Shown here piece by piece: positions 3 to 14,974 of a DNA stretch of 64,000 bases. Each line of letters begins with the position of its first letter. Within the stretch, counting starts at the first letter, position 1. This DNA is from Octopus vulgaris (lineage: Eukaryota). A program made the translations under genes and the position numbers. The notes below the pieces were generated by a model. The model saw only the letters and a list, made by a program, of their open reading frames with translations, had not been told where the DNA came from and did not search any database. The DNA is taken from NCBI GenBank assembly GCA_951406725.2, contig OX597831.1, positions 33,790,001 through 33,854,000 of the forward strand, given 5' to 3'.

Positions 3-176
3 AATTTTGAAAACATTCCACATCAAATCAAACTGACAGACGATTCGGGTTTGCATGTGGCCGCCGAAGGCAGAAACCCACGTCGCTACGTTTGTCGTAG
101 CAAATCACACTTGAAGATCAATTACCCACAAGCACGGAAACAACAAGAGCAACAAGATCACGAACAACAACAATAA
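3..176 (+). pseudogene. LINE ORF1 fragment with degenerate gag-like CCHC knuckle
   Basis: Frame 3 reads LHVAAEGRNPRRYVCRSKSHLKINY, aligning to the intact LHVVVEGRKPRCDICGPTYHLRLSC at 28435-28740(-). Confidence 0.65.
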
Positions 177-1042
177 CCACAAGAAAATCAAAAACCGAGA
201 AAAAAAAACAGCACTGCTACCCACTCCGCCATATGCACAACTAATTAAACAGCTCTACAAACAAATGAGGGAACATCAGCAACCCACAAGCCAGTCCAAC
301 CAAATAACATCACCAGCGCCACCAAGAACAGAAACAACATTATCACCACCAACAACAACAGCTCCAAAGGAAGAAGAGAAAACCAAAAAGGCTCATACCC
401 CACCCCCAAAATCCATATACCTCATCCCAACTGTCACCAACCAGCACCACCACCACCAATAACAAAATCAATACACGCAGAAATAGACATCAATACCCTT
501 CTCCTCCCACCTTCTGATTCCTCCGACATGTCAGTTGAAAACGACACAGAAGATTGGCAAGTGGTCACAGTGGGGAGAAAAAGGGGGAAAAAGAATAGAG
601 AAGCAGACAAACAAAGTAAGGAGGTTTACCACTCCCGAAACCAAAACACCAGCAGAAAACAAAAGCATCAACACAAACACACCAACAACAAACCCGCCAA
701 CAATGTTGACAGCTATAAACACCAACAATCCAGACCTAATGGAATACATTAGGTCAAACACCAACATAACAGAAAATGATACCAAAACAAAAAATTACCG
801 CCACAACACATTAAAATCATACACATAACACAGATCACATATTGCACACTGAAATTTCTCTACCCGGATGCAGTAGGGAGATTTCAAAAATACCTGTCAA
901 AAACCCCCAAAAAACTACAAAAACCTTCTAGGAGAAGACTGTGAAGTGAAGGACAAAGAACTTTCGGACAGTGACTCTCTCTCTCTTTCTCTTTTCACTT
1001 TCGTCTTCCTTTCGTGTGTAAAACACATCTTTCGACAGGAAC

Positions 1043-4000
1043 ATGCTCAAAATAGGTAGTACAAATGTACGTGGATTGGGGTAGCCTTGGAAACAAGGAT
1101 ACCTATCAAATGACATCAAGTCGCAGAATCTGAATATCATAGATATCAGCGAGAGCAGACTCCACAACTTGTGGCCCTCCAGCACATGTTCGGCGTTTAT
1201 TTTTCTCCGTGTCTGCCGAGAATGCGCAGAGGTGGCACCGCGGTGCTTCTTCGGAAGAGTCTGCACCTCAAAGTAAGAGCACTTTTCCTAGTCCCAGAGG
1301 GTAGGCTGGTCGTCTTGGATGTCGATAGCAGTAATAGGTGTGCTTTTCGACTGATAACATCCGAATGTGCCAATGTGGATATGGAGCAATCGCATCGGGT
1401 CGTCCAGATCGTGTTTAGATAGAGTATTCTGTAGGACAGTGGATAAGGAAAGTGTAGGTTGTCCACAATTCCATATAATCAACTACACAGATCACAAATT
1501 CGTGACTTGTACACTTGACTTAGATAAGACACATGGGCAGGGTCCCAGTTATTGGAAGCTGAACGCGTCGTTCACGACACGCCAGGTTTACAGGGACTGT
1601 ATTAGCACATTAGTTAAGAAAGCATTGACGGGTGCCATCGTCAACAATAGATGGTGGTATGCCCTAAAGAAAGCAATTAAAGTAGAATCGATTAGGTACA
1701 GTAAGGCCCTAGCATTAGATCAAAATAGAACAGAGGGAGACCTATTTAAGAAATCAGAAGAGGCACTTAGAACTGGTATCGTGTCCAATGTACTGGTGGC
1801 AAGGTTGGCCCTAGACCAACACTTCAACGCCAAACACGAAGGATGCGTTGTCAGAGCTAGGATGCACGCTCTAAGGAACGAAGGAGTTGGAGCCACCCGA
1901 GAGGCCCGTGAGACCCGAGTGGCGGAGGCCCCACGAGGCAACAAAGCCACCATTAGGTTTCTAACAGATGAGAATGGGTGCGAATTACTCGAGCCTGAAA
2001 GGATGTGTGAGGCCTTTCAAAAACACTTTGCCCGACTGTTCGGGACAGCTTGTTGGTCAAAACACAGAGTGGACTTTAGTGCCTACCTGCATAGCCTGAA
2101 ATGACTGTCGGCAAGAGAGGCGGAGTGTTGTAAATGATCCATCACAGCCGCGGATGTGCGGGATGCGATGGCAGTGTGTAGGAGAGACAAGTCACCAGGC
2201 TTGGATGGTCTGTCCTGAATTTAGTCACATGCCAAACTTGTTTGGAGGCATCTTGGCAGCTGTCTACTGCAACTGGCAGCAAAACGGGAGTATCCCCGTT
2301 TCTGTGAAGCGAGGAGCGGTGGCACTGCTAAAGGGAGATTCAAACAAGGAAACGCCATAGATAACTTCAGGCCCATCACTCTGCTCAACGCAGATTTGAA
2401 GATTTTGGCCAAGGTGTTAGTCAAGAGGTTAGTGCTTGTCATCGAGAAACTGGTCGACAAGGCGCAAACGTGTGCCGTGCTGGGTAAGAGTATCCATGAC
2501 AACCTCCATCTGATGCGCTACATTATAGACAGAGTACTTGGGGAACCTGGCATTGGTGGGGCGCTGATCAATTTTGATCAACCAAAAGCTTTCAATAGAG
2601 TAGACCATCGCTACTTGGATGCTGTCCTTAGAGCGGTTGGTTTCGCCCCCGTCTACGAGGTTGGATCGCTGCCTTATACAGCAGCATTCGCTCGGTAGTT
2701 CGCGTAAATGGTTATCTGTCTATACCATTTAACATTAAGCGATCGGTTCGCCAAGGATGTCCCCTCCCGTCGCTTCTGTACGTATTGACTCTTGAGTCCC
2801 GCGAGAGCTGGGATGCAGGAGGAGTGAATCTGCATACGCGGACAACATCACCATGATAGTGTCGAGCCACTGGCTTATCGACCTGGTCGGCGAGACACTA
2901 AAAGAATACGAAGCGGTTACGGGAGCAAATATTAACCGGGAAAAGTCAGTGGGCTTGTGGAGAAGCAAGCCCATGCCGTCCAACAGCATCTCCATCATGG
3001 GACGGTGGACCGACGGACCGGTTAAATTGCTCAGTGTCTGGTTCGGTCCGGACCTTCAAATGGAGAAGAGCTGGGGCGAGATAACGTGTAGGGTGGCCAC
3101 TCTCGCCAGGAATGGGCCGAGAGGAAGCTATCCCTAAAAGGTCGGCGGAGGTGGCGAACCCGTACATCGCATCCGTCATCGATTACCGTCTGACCGCCGT
3201 GCCTTGTCCCGACCCTACCAGCACCAAACTAGAACGCATACTCCTCTGCATTTTGTGGAAGGGAAGCGTTCCGATGGTTAGGCGATGCATTTGCTGTCAA
3301 CACCCGCTAAATGGAGGGCTGGGCATGCCGTGGTTGATGATGCGCAGACATGCACTGATACTGCGACATCTCCAGCGCTTCATAGACGACGGTGAACAGG
3401 TGTGGTCACCGATTGTGCGTCGCGCTTTCCCGCAGCGCGTCTCTTTGGCAGAACTGCAGTCGTGGATCAGAGACCGAGGTTAGACGAATGGCACCGCGAG
3501 TGCCGCCTTGCTCTCAAGCAACTCTGCAACTTGTGCAATTTCAATTCCACAAAGGCGTTCTATAGAGGGTTATTGGAGGGGAGGTACGACGACGTTCTCG
3601 GGCAGAATCTGGGCATCGACGAAGAACACTTGATCCGCCTGTTGAGGACAACTTTTGGGCCGGGACCTATGGACAACCACCAGAGATCCCTGGCTGGAAG
3701 TGCAATCGAGAAGCATTGCAGGTTCGGGATAAGCTCTACAAGCACGGTTCGAGACACACTGGACCGACTTGCCCGAGATGCTGTCAGAGTGACAACACCG
3801 TTCTGCACGCACTCGTGTAGTGTCCAACCATTTTGCTGTTTCCTTAAAGACAGAAAGAGTACGGTCGCGCATAGAAGCGGTCGAAATGCCGAGTAACATT
3901 ACTCAGGACCTTATGGTAAATTTACTCGACAAGGTGAGTAGCTCGGCGATAGGGAGACTTCTTCCAGTTCTTATGGACTTATGCCGAATGGCTGTTGTTA

Positions 4001-4144
4001 CGAGTGGGACGAGTGCGCCTGTCGGCCGAGTCTATCGTGAAAATTGCTCCGCCACCTTCTCTCAACCGAGAAGGCAAAGCTGTGTTCAGCGAACTGGTGG
4101 CCATGGTGAAAGAATGTGTGTGGTGGATTCGAGCGAAAGGTTGA
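1043..4144 (+). pseudogene. Tx1-like ORF2 pseudogene (APE endonuclease, reverse transcriptase, C-terminal zinc finger)
   Basis: MLKIGSTNVRGL; LDRVF/TDHK/YWKLN; NFRPITLLNADLKILAK; FDQPKAFNRVDH; RQGCPL; YADN; GGLGMP; CPRC..H..C. Many stops, frameshifts and internal deletions. Confidence 0.9.
3833..3971 (+). repeat. Perfect 139-bp inverted copy of 5575-5713 inserted into LINE ORF2
   Basis: Base-by-base reverse-complement identity; the LINE reading (CPTI ... LWTYAEWLL..RVRLSAESIVK) resumes right after it. Confidence 0.95.
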
Positions 4145-4423
4145 GAGACAAAGACTTTCCTCTCTGGCCAATCGCTCATCAGCTTTTTCAAGTACCACTT
4201 TACACTTTACACCATAACACTGTGATACATGGTCCCTATTGCTCGTTTTTTTCCTTTTTTTCCCCTTTTTTATTTTTATTTATTTATTTTCTTCTTTTCC
4301 TTTTACGATCCCTTTTGATCGAAAACCTAACCCACCTTTTTTTCTCTCCCCCCCCCAAAAGAAAAGCTCTACTTTGTAATCTGACCCGTCTGTGTGCAGC
4401 CCTGTATGGCTAATAAAGAAACA

Positions 4424-4513
4424 TATCTATCTATCTATCCATCTATCTATCTATCAATCTATCTATCAATCTATCTATCTACCCCCTCTCTCTATCTATA
4501 TATCTATATATCC

Positions 4514-4559
<46 letters not shown>

Positions 4560-4619
4560 TTATCTATCTATATGTATGTCTGTCTGTCTGTCCGTCCATC
4601 CATCCATCCATCCATCCAT

Positions 4620-4655
<36 letters not shown>

Positions 4656-4661
4656 CCATCC

Positions 4662-4717
<56 letters not shown>

Positions 4718-4815
4718 CCCCCTCTCTCTCTATCTATCCATCTATTTGTCTTTCTCTCCCCCTCTCTCTCTATCTATCCCTCTATCTACCTTTCCCCCCT
4801 CTCTCTATCTATCCA
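4424..4815. repeat. Compound (TATC)n/(TCCA)n microsatellite
   Basis: Direct reading. Confidence 0.95.
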
Positions 4816-5612
4816 CCTAACCATAGATGGAGGAGATGGATAAATGGATAAAATTATGTCTATGTCTTTTTTGTCATTTACTTCTTTTACTCATTGAACT
4901 GCGACCACGCTGGAACATCGTCTTGAAAGCGGTTTCAATGGAACACATTGACTTCAGCACTTAGGCATTCCTCTTTTTGCCGAACAGCTAAGTTAGAAGG
5001 ACGTAAATAAACCCATACCAGTTTTCAAGCGGTCAAGTGGGGACAAACATAGACACTAAGATACATACATACACGGATACAGGCACACACACTCACATAC
5101 ACCTATATATATATATATATACATACACACATCACTTTTCATTTCTTTATTTTTCTTTTTTAGGAATTGAAATAAATAGCAACCTTATAATTTCTTATTC
5201 TGTGATGTGACTGAAGCAGCGATATTCAGAAATATTCTGAAACAGTCGTTAAATGGAACGCATAGCTATTAAATTCACTTCAAACTTAAATTTATTTTAT
5301 GAGGTATCAAAATTTTTTATCGTACGACTGAAACCTGACCACGGAACAAGTTCTGACAACTCAAGAAAAAATATGAAAAGTTTAAAGTGAATTTTAACAT
5401 TTTTATCGAGTATTAAACGTCTCTTCTACGGGGTCGTTGCTTAAGATATTTTTTCACTTTAAAATTATGTCTTTTGTTGGCTGACTCGTCTCGAAGAATC
5501 CGTCTTGCGATTCTTTCCTGCGCCTTGTTCTTAATACCGGAGTTGTGAGCTCACAATGCGGAAAAGATGCTGCTAGAACTGGAAGAAGTCTCCCTATCGC
5601 CGAGCTACTCAC

Positions 5613-5696
5613 CTTGTCGAGTAAATTTACCATAAGGTCCTGAGTAATGTTACTCGGCATTTCGACCGCTTCTATGCGCGACCGTACTCTTTCTGT
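5613..5696 (-). CDS. Predicted internal exon of unidentified host gene (TERVRSRIEAVEMPSNITQDLMVNLLDK)
   Basis: Acceptor ttgctgtttccttaaag, donor AAG|GTGAGT, 84 nt, phase 0-0, open frame in unique sequence. Confidence 0.7.
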
Positions 5697-6236
5697 CTTT
5701 AAGGAAACAGCAAGCGATGAAGGGGTAGACCAAGGGCGAAATGATTGCATAAAACCCAATTGGTAACAATTGTCAAGACAGAAAGCGTAATGGTAGGTGC
5801 ATCTAATAAAACCCTAGGGAAGCGATAGCTGAGGAGTCTACCTTCAAGACTATCTCAGGAATAAAGGGCGAAGGTGGATAAATAGATAAAATTACGTCTT
5901 TGTCTTTTATGTTTTCTTACTTCTTTCAGTCATTGAACTGCGACTATGCTGGAGCATCGCTTTGAAGGTGGTTTTAATGGAATATATTAATCTCAGTACT
6001 TATGCGTTCTTTTTCTGCCGAACAACTAAGAAGGACGGAAACAAAGCTACACAAGTTTTCAATCGGAAGTGACAAACATAGTCACTAAGATACATACACA
6101 CACGGACTGACATGCACACACACATACATATACACATACATACACACGCGCACACACACACATACACACACACACACACAAACACACACACACCAATAAT
6201 GTGTGTGTATGTATGGATTATGTATGTGTGTGTATG

Positions 6237-8496: not shown

Positions 8497-9246
8497 AGAG
8501 CAAGATAGATAGATAGGCAGTTGTAGTAACGCTCCATGGATTCTATATCCTGTTTTCCAATCGACGCGGTTATCCAGCGATCTTTTGCGCTGCTCTCTTT
8601 TTTTCTCATTTACCATCAATGGCTGCTGGCGCCCTTAGCTATTGTTTACATTCAAATGGAAAAGAACGGTGACCGACTCCAAAGTGTTTTGTTTGTGCCT
8701 TTATCTACATTTATACTATCCATCCATTATTGAAAATGGTTTCCTATGTTAACAAAGGTAACAATGTTACGAAAAGGTAGTAAAGAAAGCATGCAACTCT
8801 AACATTGCACTTGAAAATTGAATTATTTCGACGTTTGGAAAGAACTGAAAAGCTGAATGCCATGTTGCTTCGCATATAAAATAGATTTTCTTCCTCAAAT
8901 TATGATATTTGGGAAGAAAGTGACCAGTTAATAGAATATATGAGCGAATCAGAAAGTTCTAAATATACTGATGTGTAGTAAACATTAAAAAAAAATCAAA
9001 ATTTTCAGAACTTAATCTAGTGTTATTTAAGTTATTTAGAGCAAAGTGATTTGAATGTATGCCAATTTCAGGTTCAGTGTTCAAGGAAAAGATCAGGCAG
9101 GTGTACAACGATATCAGTACGACAGGGAGGCTTTCGTGGCTTCACTTTAGTAGTTTGGATACTTTCAAATATGACATGGTTCTCGTAAGCTTATTTTGTA
9201 AAGAAATGTAAAGAAATGTGCAGTTATTGAAGCTGGTGAAAAATAC

Positions 9247-10582: not shown

Positions 10583-10695
10583 GAAATATAGAAAAACTAA
10601 AAAGCGGTGAGATGACAGAATTCTTAGCATATTGAGTTAAATGCTCAGCGGCATTTTGTCCATATTCACGTTTTAGGGGAGATGGAGAGGAGGGA

Positions 10696-11495
10696 GCTTC
10701 ATGGAAAAGTCTGAGGGGAGAGGAAGCGGAGGAAGGGGAGGAGGGAAACATCTTGGAAAGTTCCAAGGAGGGGTATTTCCTGGAAATTTCCGAGGAGAGA
10801 GTAGATGAAGAGAAGGAGATGGACTTCCTGGAAAGTTCCGAGGGGACAGATGAAGGGGATTTCTAGGAAAGTTCCGAGGAGGGAGAGATGATGAGGAAGA
10901 GGAAGAAGAGGGACTTCATGGAAAGTTCCGAGGAAGGGAACTTTCTTGAAATTTCTGAGGAGGGGGGCTTCCTGGAAATTTCCGAGGGGTAACGAAGGGG
11001 AGGAGGGTGACTTCCTGGAAAGTTCCGAGGAGCGAGATTCCTGGAAAGTTCCGAAGTGGGGAGGTGAAGAGGAGAACTTTCTGGAAATATCCGACAGTGA
11101 GTTCCGAGAGTGAACTCCAGGAAAGCTCCGAGGAGGGAGAGATGAAGGGGAAGAGAACACTATAGAAAATTCCAAGAAGCAGGACTTCCTGGAAAGTTTC
11201 GAGGGGTGATGAATGGTAGGAGAAGAGGGGGAATAAGAGAAGAGGACATACTGGAAATTTCCGGGGAGCAGTACTTCCTGGAAAGTTCCGAGGGAGAAAT
11301 GAAGAGGTGGTAAGGTCTGAGTATAGGGGAGATGAAGGGAGGAAAGGATGAGAGGGATTTCCTGAAAAGTTTCGAGGATGGGAACTCCTTGGAAATTTCC
11401 GAGAGGGGAAGATGAAGGGGAAGGGCAGGAGGGGGATTTCTGGAAAGTTCCGAGGAGGAGAGATGTAGGTGAACAACCTGGAAAATTACGACTTG
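10696..11495. repeat. Array of ~20 degenerate TTCCTGGAAA(G/T)TTCCGAGG repeats with variable GA-rich spacers
   Basis: Copies near 10777, 10825, 10915, 11012, 11038, 11185, 11275, 11438 and others; splits a family B SINE (head 10601-10674, remainder ~11536-11650). Confidence 0.9.
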
Positions 11496-11824
11496 GGGGT
11501 GATGAATGGGAGGAATGGGATGGGGGGGACATCATGGAATCAAATTCCACCGTAGTTTACTTTGCTTTCGATCCTTTCAGGGTCAAAAAAATTTAATCGT
11601 CTTATTCCTCGTCCAAAATTGCTGGCCTCGTGCCAAAAGTTGAAGCCAATATATGAGAAAACCCAGAGCGTTTCAGAAAGTGCTTGTGTTTATGAGGCTC
11701 GTAGTATAGCGTGGATATCGGTGGAGATGTTTAAGAAACTTCCTGTAAATAGTTTTAACACAGTCCAGCTATGACTACAGATATATAGATACACAAACAC
11801 ACACACACGTGCGCGCTCATACAT

Positions 11825-13563: not shown

Positions 13564-14648
13564 AATCGTTACTGCGCCGGGCAAAATGCTTAGCAGTATT
13601 TACGTTCTGAGTTCAAATTCCACCGAGGACGGCTTTGCTTTTCATTCTTTCGGAATCGATAAAATAAGTACCAGTTGAATACTGGGGTCAATGTAACCGA
13701 CCTACCTTCTCCTTGAACTTGTTGGTTTTCTGCCAAAATTTGAAACCAATATAATATATTATAACATAACATATTTGATAGTTGTTTCACTGACACATTA
13801 CAATTATAATTTTCGAATTACATTTTCTAATTTTGGCACAAGGTCAGAAATTTTGAGATGTATGTGTGTGGAGGGAGGCGAAGTCGAATTCATCAACCTC
13901 CAAGACTTGACTGGTACTTCTATTGACCCCAAAACAATCAAAAGTAAGGTTGAGATTTGAACTCAAAACAAAACATCGGAAGTATTGCCGCTAAGCACTT
14001 GTCCGACGAGCTAAAGATTCTGTTAGCTCACTAACAATATTAACGTTTGTCTGTAGTTGCAAACATTTCTAGAACACGTATGGACACCTCACAATATAAC
14101 TACAATAAACCTGATATTGTAAATTCGGTATGGTTTCTAATTATTTTTCTCTTACATATCTCATTACTTTCGCTTCTTTTTAACTGTAAGTATAACCAGA
14201 AATGTTATAACCTCTTCCATTTCTTTTACGTTTAGTTTTCATTGTGAAAATTCACCAGTTGTTCGCTTTTTCTTCCTTTTGTTTTACATCCCTGATTTCA
14301 TGTATTATTTGTTTGTTTCCTACTTTTTGCCCCTCATAATCTTACCCTTTTTATTTGGTTGTTTTTATCGCGCTCTCTCTCTCTCTCTCACTCTCTTTCT
14401 ATCTGTCTTTCTCTCTCCCTCTCTATCTATATACATACATAAATATGCATGGTTATACATGCACTTACACATACATATATATATTTACTTAATACACGTG
14501 CTAACATACAGGCAATGTCGCATTAAGCAATCTTAACACAACATTCACATCCTCATACTCGCTAATTAAAAATCACCAGGTGCAATTGAGTGACATAGAG
14601 CATTGTTCATACTTAATTAAACTTCAGAATCTGAATTTATAAACTTAC

Positions 14649-14690
14649 AAAATCCTTCGACTTCGACAAAGAAACAATTTTTGAAACGAC
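14649..14690 (-). CDS. Predicted internal exon (VVSKIVSLSKSKDF)
   Basis: Acceptor gtttttttaag, donor TTT|GTAAGT, 42 nt, phase 0-0, joins flanking exons in frame. Confidence 0.6.
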
Positions 14691-14974
14691 CTTAAAAAAA
14701 CCCGACCTTTTCGAAACTCAAGCATTTCCACATGATATTGAATAAATTGGTATGGGATGCTTGCAACACCATTTAAAGGACGCGGAGTTTTGATTGATAA
14801 CGGAAAATGGATTTTTACATTAAAATCTCGGCAGTATTTTGTCCTATTCAAAAGGTTAGATAATCACTGACCACTTTGAATTCGGGTTTAAATTTCTTTC
14901 TTTTTTTTTTATCCGAGCAAGTGAGAATTATTAGGACCTTCGTGCTCCCAGACAACACGTTTATTATAAACATT

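Follow-up and report, generated by a model that had tools for sequence, protein, structure and literature searches.

What is the origin of a 139-bp sequence that occurs twice, in opposite orientations and 1603 nt apart, in the genome of Octopus vulgaris? In the window analysed here (64,000 nucleotides of contig OX597831.1, forward-strand positions 33,790,001 to 33,854,000), an initial annotation had described positions 3833-3971 as the exact reverse complement of 5575-5713, and this is borne out at 139 of 139 positions, with both ends of each arm abrupt. A genome search with the 139-bp query, which skips very common words, found two full-length identical copies only, and a chance match is ruled out as the origin of the pair (E 6e-67). 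The same annotation took 5613-5696 for an exon of a host gene and 3833-3971 for an antisense copy of that exon lodged in its own intron. This part is not supported: 5613-5696 lies in the remains of a fossil LINE, and a search for a host gene yielded none. Our strongly favored explanation is that the copy is an exact inverted duplicate of this fragment within a second decayed LINE, likely left by break repair in the germline and likely functionless. The features on which the argument draws are collected in Table 1.

Table 1. Features of the inverted duplicate and its surroundings (positions in the window).
Feature	Position	Strand	Basis or remark
Interrupted LINE, 5' part: decayed endonuclease-reverse transcriptase frame with a C-terminal zinc-knuckle-like motif	1114..3833	+	ORF fragments from 1114; paralogs align over 1874-3833
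Inserted copy (acceptor), 139 bp	3833..3971	+	Exact reverse complement of 5575-5713; missing from 29/29 aligned paralogous LINE copies
Right junction in X1 contig, no differences	3942..4027	+	Spans 30 letters of the copy and 56 of the LINE
Interrupted LINE, resumption after the copy	3972..4200	+	31 alignments start at 3974
Fossil LINE fragment, stretch just C-terminal to the reverse transcriptase domain	5466..5701	-	Family searches, profile and paralog alignment
Template (donor) of the copy	5575..5713	-	127 bp within the fossil LINE tail and 12 bp past the last aligned paralog base
84-nt candidate exon of the initial annotation	5613..5696	-	Wholly inside the fossil LINE reading frame

What was copied? 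Judged by its relatives, the candidate exon inside 5575-5713 belongs to the coding tail of a LINE family that is dead and present in many copies. The source matches nine paralogs on nine other contigs at 68-91% identity over part of the query and was aligned with 10 paralogs; the insert is about 70% identical to other family members. In the family search all 150 of the scored matches, among 10,518 candidates, are family members, most of them with internal stops. The RVT_1 domain is present in each of the eight long family representatives scanned, the source being homologous to the region that follows it; in seven of the eight, either 60-110 residues separate the end of the best RVT_1 stretch from the match, or that stretch is the sole reverse transcriptase domain. 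One representative, P0018, is a fused model, and another, P0031, additionally carries an endonuclease domain. A C-terminal zinc knuckle is missing in all seven representatives viewed, consistent with the RTE clade, to which the 5466-5701 fragment presumably belongs as a Rex3/Expander-like element. A profile built from 59 segments places only the source (E 3.7e-4) and the copy (E 9.8e-4) above the inclusion threshold. Likewise, residues 128-160 of P0001 map by tblastn to 5696-5595 in the same frame as the candidate exon, and a BLASTP alignment of that frame has 19 of 34 residues identical; a Pfam scan of the 5613-5696 frame gave no match.

The LINE into which this fragment was copied is one that we take to be Tx1/L1-like, a name carried over from the initial annotation, and it retains an RVT_1 match at 2225-2698 (E 1.9e-10). 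The earlier view that the copy breaks a decayed LINE reading frame, and that the frame resumes at once, is upheld by alignment. All 29 paralogs are continuous across the insertion site and thus display the empty site, so that the insertion was received by the LINE, at 3833, and 5575-5713 is the donor. Relative to the paralogs, 4-6 bases were lost (the copy stands in place of six paralog bases that fall between 3833 and 3972). Microhomology amounts to 1 nt at the left junction, where T3833 fits both LINE and donor, and to 0-2 nt at the right junction, depending on the pre-insertion base at 3971. A target-site duplication and poly(A) are both absent. Similarly upheld is the claim that the copy is far younger than the LINE it interrupts: the LINE and a young paralog differ at roughly 10% of the bases aligned (84 of 833 and 22 of 227), whereas copy and source are identical. 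Because the source sequence differs at 4 of 139 positions in two other runs, this identity suggests that the insertion is recent.

We propose that a broken 3' end in the LINE would first have paired, over 1-2 bases, with the opposite strand at a point 1.6 kb downstream. Second, the annealed end would have been extended by 139 nt on the donor template and, once released, rejoined to the other end of the break. The sequence of such a scar does not discriminate among synthesis-dependent strand annealing, polymerase theta end joining and replication template switching, each of which may have produced it. Nested retrotransposition of an RTE copy is rejected, since the insert has no tail, is an internal fragment and is identical to its neighbor; the terminal inverted repeats of a DNA transposon are rejected as well, since the arms lie inside two different LINEs, each of which continues through.

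How does this scar compare with known systems? The "doublets" of Thomas et al. 2004 are reportedly short exact local duplicate pairs of 25-100 bp, mostly on the same strand and spaced near 1 kb; ours is likewise an exact local pair, but it is 139 bp long and inverted. The closest match is to the repair-mediated duplications (RDs) that Pace, Sen, Batzer and Feschotte reported in vertebrates in 2009 (PMC2671141), which would make the present locus an ordinary further case of a published class of event. As defined in that paper, an RD breaks up a transposable element with an insert of 50 bp or more (139 bp here), has a single donor at a distance of over 50 bp but under 5 kb (a gap of 1603 nt here), is neither retrotransposed nor a nested element and lacks a poly(A/T) tail, as does our copy, and is accompanied by a deletion of 1-15 nt or by filler at the breakpoint (4-6 nt lost here); donor and acceptor are identical in the youngest cases, as they are in the octopus (PMC2671141). 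The human set comprises 824 cases within 5 kb, with a median of 147 bp, a spacing peak near 1.2 kb, deletions of 1-15 nt and proximal breakpoints free of poly(A) in 39 of 39 instances; one case in that paper is an exon of ACSBG2, an antisense copy of which sits in an intron of ACSBG2 itself (PMC2671141). Three differences can be drawn from the same source: the microhomology counted for RDs is 2-9 nt, whereas here it is 1 nt on the left and 0-2 nt on the right, short of that range on at least one side; our genome is that of an invertebrate; and our donor is a fossil transposable element fragment, which the RD pipeline might filter as a nested element (PMC2671141). MMBIR-type templated insertions, found as germline variants, also place an inverted copy of a nearby template at a break, but in that study the template search was limited to within 100 bp, in contrast to the 1.6 kb seen here (PMC8421209). 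Finally, inverted Alu pairs likewise consist of two inverted repeat-derived arms that yield a long RNA duplex if co-transcribed; in the Alu cases those arms flank or neighbor real exons in known transcripts (PMC13019027, PMC2533698), whereas neither a host exon nor a transcript was found around the octopus arms.

Are such duplicates common in this genome? We counted sharp-ended local duplicates (at least 40 bp, at least 97% identical, gap 50-5000) in 78 other stretches totaling 780 kb, and obtained 32 alignments in 12 of the 78 stretches, compared with 0.4 expected from between-stretch pairs; many of these are multi-copy arrays. From 46 background alignments we dropped arrays and fold-backs (L055, L082, L087, L092, L084 and two L050 rows), common repeats (L065, L088, L112, L138) and pairs with a gap below 250 bp (L051, the direct pair of L099, L105, L124, L136). 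By this rough count, 12 two-copy candidates with a gap of at least 250 bp are found in 780 kb, seven of them spaced 0.8-2 kb, in both orientations. An empty-site paralog confirms one of the 12 (L095), and two of those kept, L049 (126 bp) and L137 (383 bp), may be transposon ends. In genome searches, the sole 99% match of L085 is its local partner; the search with L100 was swamped by flanking repeat. The 12 two-copy local duplicates suggest that the Octopus vulgaris genome often captures nearby DNA during repair.

Could the pair nevertheless act through RNA? The two arms are complementary at 139 of 139 positions on either strand, and a 139-bp RNA duplex, with a predicted energy of -278.6 kcal/mol, would form if both were co-transcribed. 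We searched for a host gene with strict and lenient splice-site scans, composition-ranked ORFs (627 ORFs, of which the top 70 were viewed) and Pfam. No host exon chain was recognized in 264 kb by this ab initio and Pfam approach, which misses short and non-coding exons, and the Pfam cut-off was reached by none of the 18 top-scoring ORFs and none of the 47 exon candidates in the 264 kb. The upstream donor that had been placed at 14649 sits in single-copy DNA, and the one 28-aa frame at that donor has no Pfam match. No RNA data set was listed as covering 3700-4240, which carries no weight as to expression. Since the source is a dead LINE tail and no host gene was found, the editing or exon skipping once envisaged is left with no demonstrated substrate; we infer that the copy is likely without function, within the reach of gene finding that misses short and non-coding exons. 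Both arms might lie in a long intron or a non-coding transcript, where the duplex would be edited passively and with no effect on protein. This is compatible with a break-repair origin, draws on the perfect complementarity and agrees with the repeat-directed editing reported for coleoids (PMC9068888); given that no host gene was found around the arms, we regard it as unlikely, if by no means negligible.

It is markedly less probable that the copy was templated by RNA, whether because a LINE enzyme reverse-transcribed a local transcript or through RNA-templated repair. Young LINE copies in the genome are about 99% identical to each other, and a reverse transcriptase is thus likely available. 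The junctions fit the templated insertion of nearby DNA, by break repair or template switching, that the initial annotation had put forward. As for the RNA template it had added as an option, neither poly(A) nor a target-site duplication nor a spliced form is seen, and nothing in the copy points to RNA. Furthermore, its ends match neither the 3' end of the LINE nor the proposed splice sites, which they overhang by 17 and 38 nt. In similar events, whichever the orientation, donor distances concentrate between 0.8 and 2 kb (7 of the 12 candidates above), which fits capture of nearby DNA.

A further reading, to which we give very little credence, is that an unannotated transcript of the minus strand has taken up the fossil LINE fragment as an exon and that the duplex formed with its antisense copy alters inclusion or draws ADAR editing. 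As letters, the splice signals stand: on the minus strand an AG precedes 5696, GTGAGT follows 5613, and the 84 nt between are open. The donor motif scores 7.8 bits and 15 of the 20 bases upstream of the acceptor are pyrimidines (rough matrix), but the acceptor is weak, at 1.5 bits with A at -3. The GT is present at the donor position in 17 of 23 LINE paralogs and was inherited from LINE codons; the acceptor position reads ATG in 12 of 23 paralogs and AG in one, a simple-repeat misalignment, and the AG is thus particular to the source copy. Under our preferred break-repair explanation these splice-like motifs would be by-products of LINE codons. The predicted duplex favors this reading, as do the reports that inverted Alu pairs promote skipping (PMC13019027 and PMC2533698) and that in squid ubiquitous editing coincides with repeats located in introns and UTRs (PMC9068888). 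Against it stands the outcome of the host-gene search, and 12 other inverted pairs (at least 100 bp, at least 80% identical, less than 5 kb apart) lie in the window, so that the duplex potential of the 139-bp pair is not special. Still more doubtful, by a little, is the extension in which a one-base change gave the acceptor and a recent, perhaps segregating, antisense scar now switches inclusion or editing as a duplex regulatory element made in one step.

Is the copy real? We compared the locus with contigs assembled from four short-read runs (X1, X2, X8 and X9); X1 may be the assembled sample, and contigs of this kind lose variants and junctions that adjoin repeat words of very high depth. 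Support for the two junctions is divided: the right one is carried by an X1 contig, but the left one by no contig of the four runs. The X1 contig has 30 copy-side letters, one under our 31-letter bridging rule, and ends in 22 unaligned, unexplained letters beyond 4027. A second X1 contig, from the donor, stops precisely at 3971, where a branch of the assembly graph would be expected to end it, and is unbroken at the left-junction side. The donor-site contigs of X2, X8 and X9 run unbranched through 5575-5713 with both donor-side flanks, although the copy may still be present in these runs, given the losses beside repeats. X2 and X8 have no contig over 3972-3979, filled or empty, and no contig in the four runs could be assigned to an orthologous empty allele. 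An X9 joint, 3833>3978, was considered as the empty allele but shows none of the variants particular to this copy; we assigned it to a paralog. The complete identity of the arms, the left junction missing from all runs and the unbroken X1 donor contig would suit an assembly or library chimera; but the right-junction letters in X1, free of differences, and the contig end at 3971 argue against one, as do the clean loss of 4-6 bases and the in-register continuation of the LINE, a pattern that the published biological class shares (PMC2671141), and the similar events at 94-98% identity, i.e., aged, elsewhere in the genome. We therefore consider a chimera as improbable as exonization. Least probable of all is that a staggered-break inversion, or a larger inverted duplication, has left the arms as its ends, the 1.6-kb interval being inverted in some haplotypes: an inverted interval would yield the same short words and only one junction is found in short-read contigs, but the assembly shows each element keeping its own orientation, the LINE resuming at 3972 and the fossil tail running from 5575 to 5466.

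Taken singly, this locus matters little, being a scrap of one repeat copied into another, and the 139-bp copy could be used as a presence/absence marker if it is polymorphic. Our literature search found no cephalopod survey of templated insertions or, judged by title, of repair-mediated duplications. The 12 candidates in 780 kb are not comparable with the human rate of 0.62 per Mb of transposable element DNA, which was obtained by a stricter method (PMC2671141). If a much higher rate were true, inverted copies would keep supplying new, perfectly paired RNA duplexes to a group of animals in which A-to-I editing is heavy.

What is the origin of the 139-bp inverted duplicate? As initially annotated, 3833-3971 is the exact reverse complement of 5575-5713 (139/139 positions), with 1603 nt between the arms and a likeness that ends sharply on both sides. 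A search of the genome (2.8 Gb, 227 contigs) with 5540-5760 returned 11 matches: the source, the copy, and nine weaker ones (68-91% identity) on nine other contigs. The boundaries of the copy, 17 nt short of the AG and 38 nt past the GT, match neither splice nor element limits. We propose that the copy is a genuine and recent insertion, likely a repair-mediated duplication that carried a piece of one dead LINE, inverted, into a second dead LINE.

The source had been read as a host exon at 5613-5696. It is evidently a piece of fossil LINE instead, and the open phase 0-0 frame is evidently that of the element itself. Searched with the best-preserved paralog frame (L009, 117 aa), the genome gave 10,518 candidates at first look; all 150 that were scored proved to be hits, most of them with stops. 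The same frame hit 1,251 protein representatives at E<=0.001; RVT_1 was found in 8/8 long relatives scanned, and an endonuclease domain also in one. Aligned directly, the window source frame shares 19/34 residues with one RVT_1-bearing protein, and the alignment opens at 5696, where the proposed exon also starts. When all window ORFs were ranked with a profile of 59 LINE-tail segments, just two passed its inclusion threshold, the source frame at E 3.7e-4 and its copy at E 9.8e-4; the tail is putatively of the RTE clade (Rex3/Expander-like). The claimed splice-site letters, AG and GT, are present, but they have another apparent origin. The GT occurs in 17/23 paralogs, within codons for Asp-Lys/Arg-Val, which argues for a "donor" inherited from the element; the "acceptor" position is ATG in 12/23 paralogs and AG in only one of the 23, there from simple-repeat misalignment, which argues that a single base of a Met codon was altered here. 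A rough matrix made for this analysis gives them 7.8 and 1.5 bits, respectively. Two copies of a common short repeat (4823-5132 and 5861-6163, 78% identical, same orientation) flank the fragment.

Splice-site scans and ORF ranking across the window and 100 kb on either side, using a small local repeat library that masked 43-75% of each stretch, yielded no coherent exon chain. Pfam scans of the 18 top ORFs and of 47 exon candidates gave no match above cut-off, and the one frame tested near 14649 had none. Because exons that are short or non-coding escape such methods, and introns may be large, these results fail to support a host gene but do not disprove one.

The receiving LINE has 2,594 candidates in the genome, and 29/29 aligned paralogs are unbroken across the site, confirming that the copy breaks into this element. 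Six paralog bases between 3833 and 3972 are missing from the window. On the left, T3833 is compatible with both LINE and donor (1 nt of microhomology); the right side overlaps by 0-2 nt, depending on one pre-insertion base, so the loss at the site is 4-6 nt. Neither a target-site duplication (junctions versus paralogs) nor poly(A) was found at the copy. The reading frame of the interrupted LINE is missing its end as well: alignments to paralogs break off at 4200 and restart near 4243-4283, and contigs of two sequencing runs, X1 and X2, span 4200-4245 without differences; this older deletion is therefore common to both.

The initial annotation had called for reads across both junctions. When contigs of four runs (X1, X2, X8, X9) were placed on 3400-4240, the right junction was seen and the left was not. 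In X1, which may be the sample that was assembled, the donor contig stops at 3971 exactly; another contig spans 3942-4027 with zero differences and 30 letters on the copy side, one letter below the bridging rule of the alignment tool; we infer that an assembly-graph branch would give such an overlap. Its 22 further letters, unaligned from 4028 on, could reflect another allele, further rearrangement or merger with a paralog. In X2 (organism code of X1, other sample), X8 (code D) and X9, the 139 bp lie within a single contig that continues into the donor flank at either end; over this length X2 matches exactly, and X8 and X9 differ at 4/139. Although X9 carries code A, it has A3937C and the difference count in common with X8; X1 and X2 do not, which hints that one label may cover divergent lineages. 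No difference separates copy from source over 139 positions (95% upper bound 2.1%). A copy older than the split from the X8/X9 lineages should, barring gene conversion, differ from its source at about four sites by now (P of zero 0.018). The interrupted LINE is ~10% diverged from a young paralog. Barring gene conversion, then, the copy is apparently young, and far younger than its host, as had been claimed.

PMC2671141 describes repair-mediated duplications as insertions of at least 50 bp that interrupt a transposable element and have a single nearby donor, with deletions of 1-15 nt, microhomology of 2-9 nt and poly(A) absent at 39/39 proximal breakpoints; some are still polymorphic. It counts 824 human cases with a donor within 5 kb (median length 147 bp), the spacing peaking near 1.2 kb, perhaps partly a method artefact according to its authors. 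The window copy fits in size, distance, deletion and lack of a tail, whereas its microhomology is marginal. Contigs of the four runs yielded no orthologous empty site. Related descriptions are the "doublets" cited there and, in PMC8421209, MMBIR templated insertions, for which templates were sought within 100 bp; here the template lies 1603 nt away. The class is already known, and this locus is probably a new instance.

Could the duplex nonetheless be functional? Its predicted energy (-278.6 kcal/mol, either strand) makes passive editing of the arms plausible if they are co-transcribed, and PMC9068888 reports repeat-directed editing in squid. That the duplex acts on an exonized LINE fragment is very improbable: it needs an as yet hypothetical transcript, and the window holds 12 other inverted pairs of at least 100 bp less than 5 kb apart. 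In PMC2671141, one exon copied antisense into an intron of its own gene shows no sign of constraint.

Features in the window and in other stretches of the genome (L-numbers)
Feature	Position	Strand	Remark
Upstream exon/donor of initial annotation	14590-14830, GTAAGT after 14649	minus	single-copy stretch, good donor motif
Fossil LINE fragment	5466-5701	minus	paralogs align with window there and with one another
Interrupted LINE	RVT_1 at 2225-2698	plus	host of copy
Fold-back tandem arrays	L055:138-3600; L082:2104-4763; L087:7387-8359; L092:8469-9668; L051:3275-4051		
Local near-exact duplicate	L050:3910-3967, 4731-4799, 5246-5513		
Local near-exact duplicate	L085:377-451/1599-1673		
Local near-exact duplicate	L090:4071-4293/6284-6504		
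Local near-exact duplicate	L095:1251-1293/2237-2279		
Local near-exact duplicate	L099:8323-8372/9202-9251		
Local near-exact duplicate	L100:2543-2618/4066-4141		
Local near-exact duplicate	L123:968-1068/2370-2469		

Other repeats occur in the window and in the stretches surveyed. In 5/78 stretches there are young tandem arrays with units of 350-640 bp, 95-100% identical and switching orientation within the array. A near-intact LINE frame of another family (816 aa, with 440 aa in the next frame) lies ~96 kb right of the window (L066:6274-9998). At 10680-11530 is a degenerate purine-rich minisatellite-like array with a repeated GGAAA(G/T)TTCC core, resembled by L050 near 8513-8683; L050 also has a 212-bp fold-back beside a 58-bp exact inverted copy.

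Finally, a further 78 stretches of 10 kb, of which 20 flank the window and 58 were placed at arbitrary round coordinates, were surveyed for sharp-ended duplicates of at least 40 bp and at least 97% identity, 50-5000 bp apart. They gave 32 alignments in 12 stretches, many of them multi-copy arrays, versus 0.4 expected from between-stretch pairs. Once arrays, common repeats and pairs <250 bp apart are set aside, 11 stretches still hold 12 two-copy candidates (seven inverted, five direct), including exact inverted pairs of 43, 50 and 58 bp; the 139-bp window copy is the longest exact case observed. An empty-site paralog shows 43 bp in place of 11 at L095, the one candidate tested in this way by local library. 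Gaps of 0.8-2 kb separate 7/12 candidates, the near-exact duplicates tabulated above (780 kb surveyed); duplicates so spaced occur in both orientations, well over the between-stretch rate, which suggests that repair-mediated capture may proceed at a high rate genome-wide.
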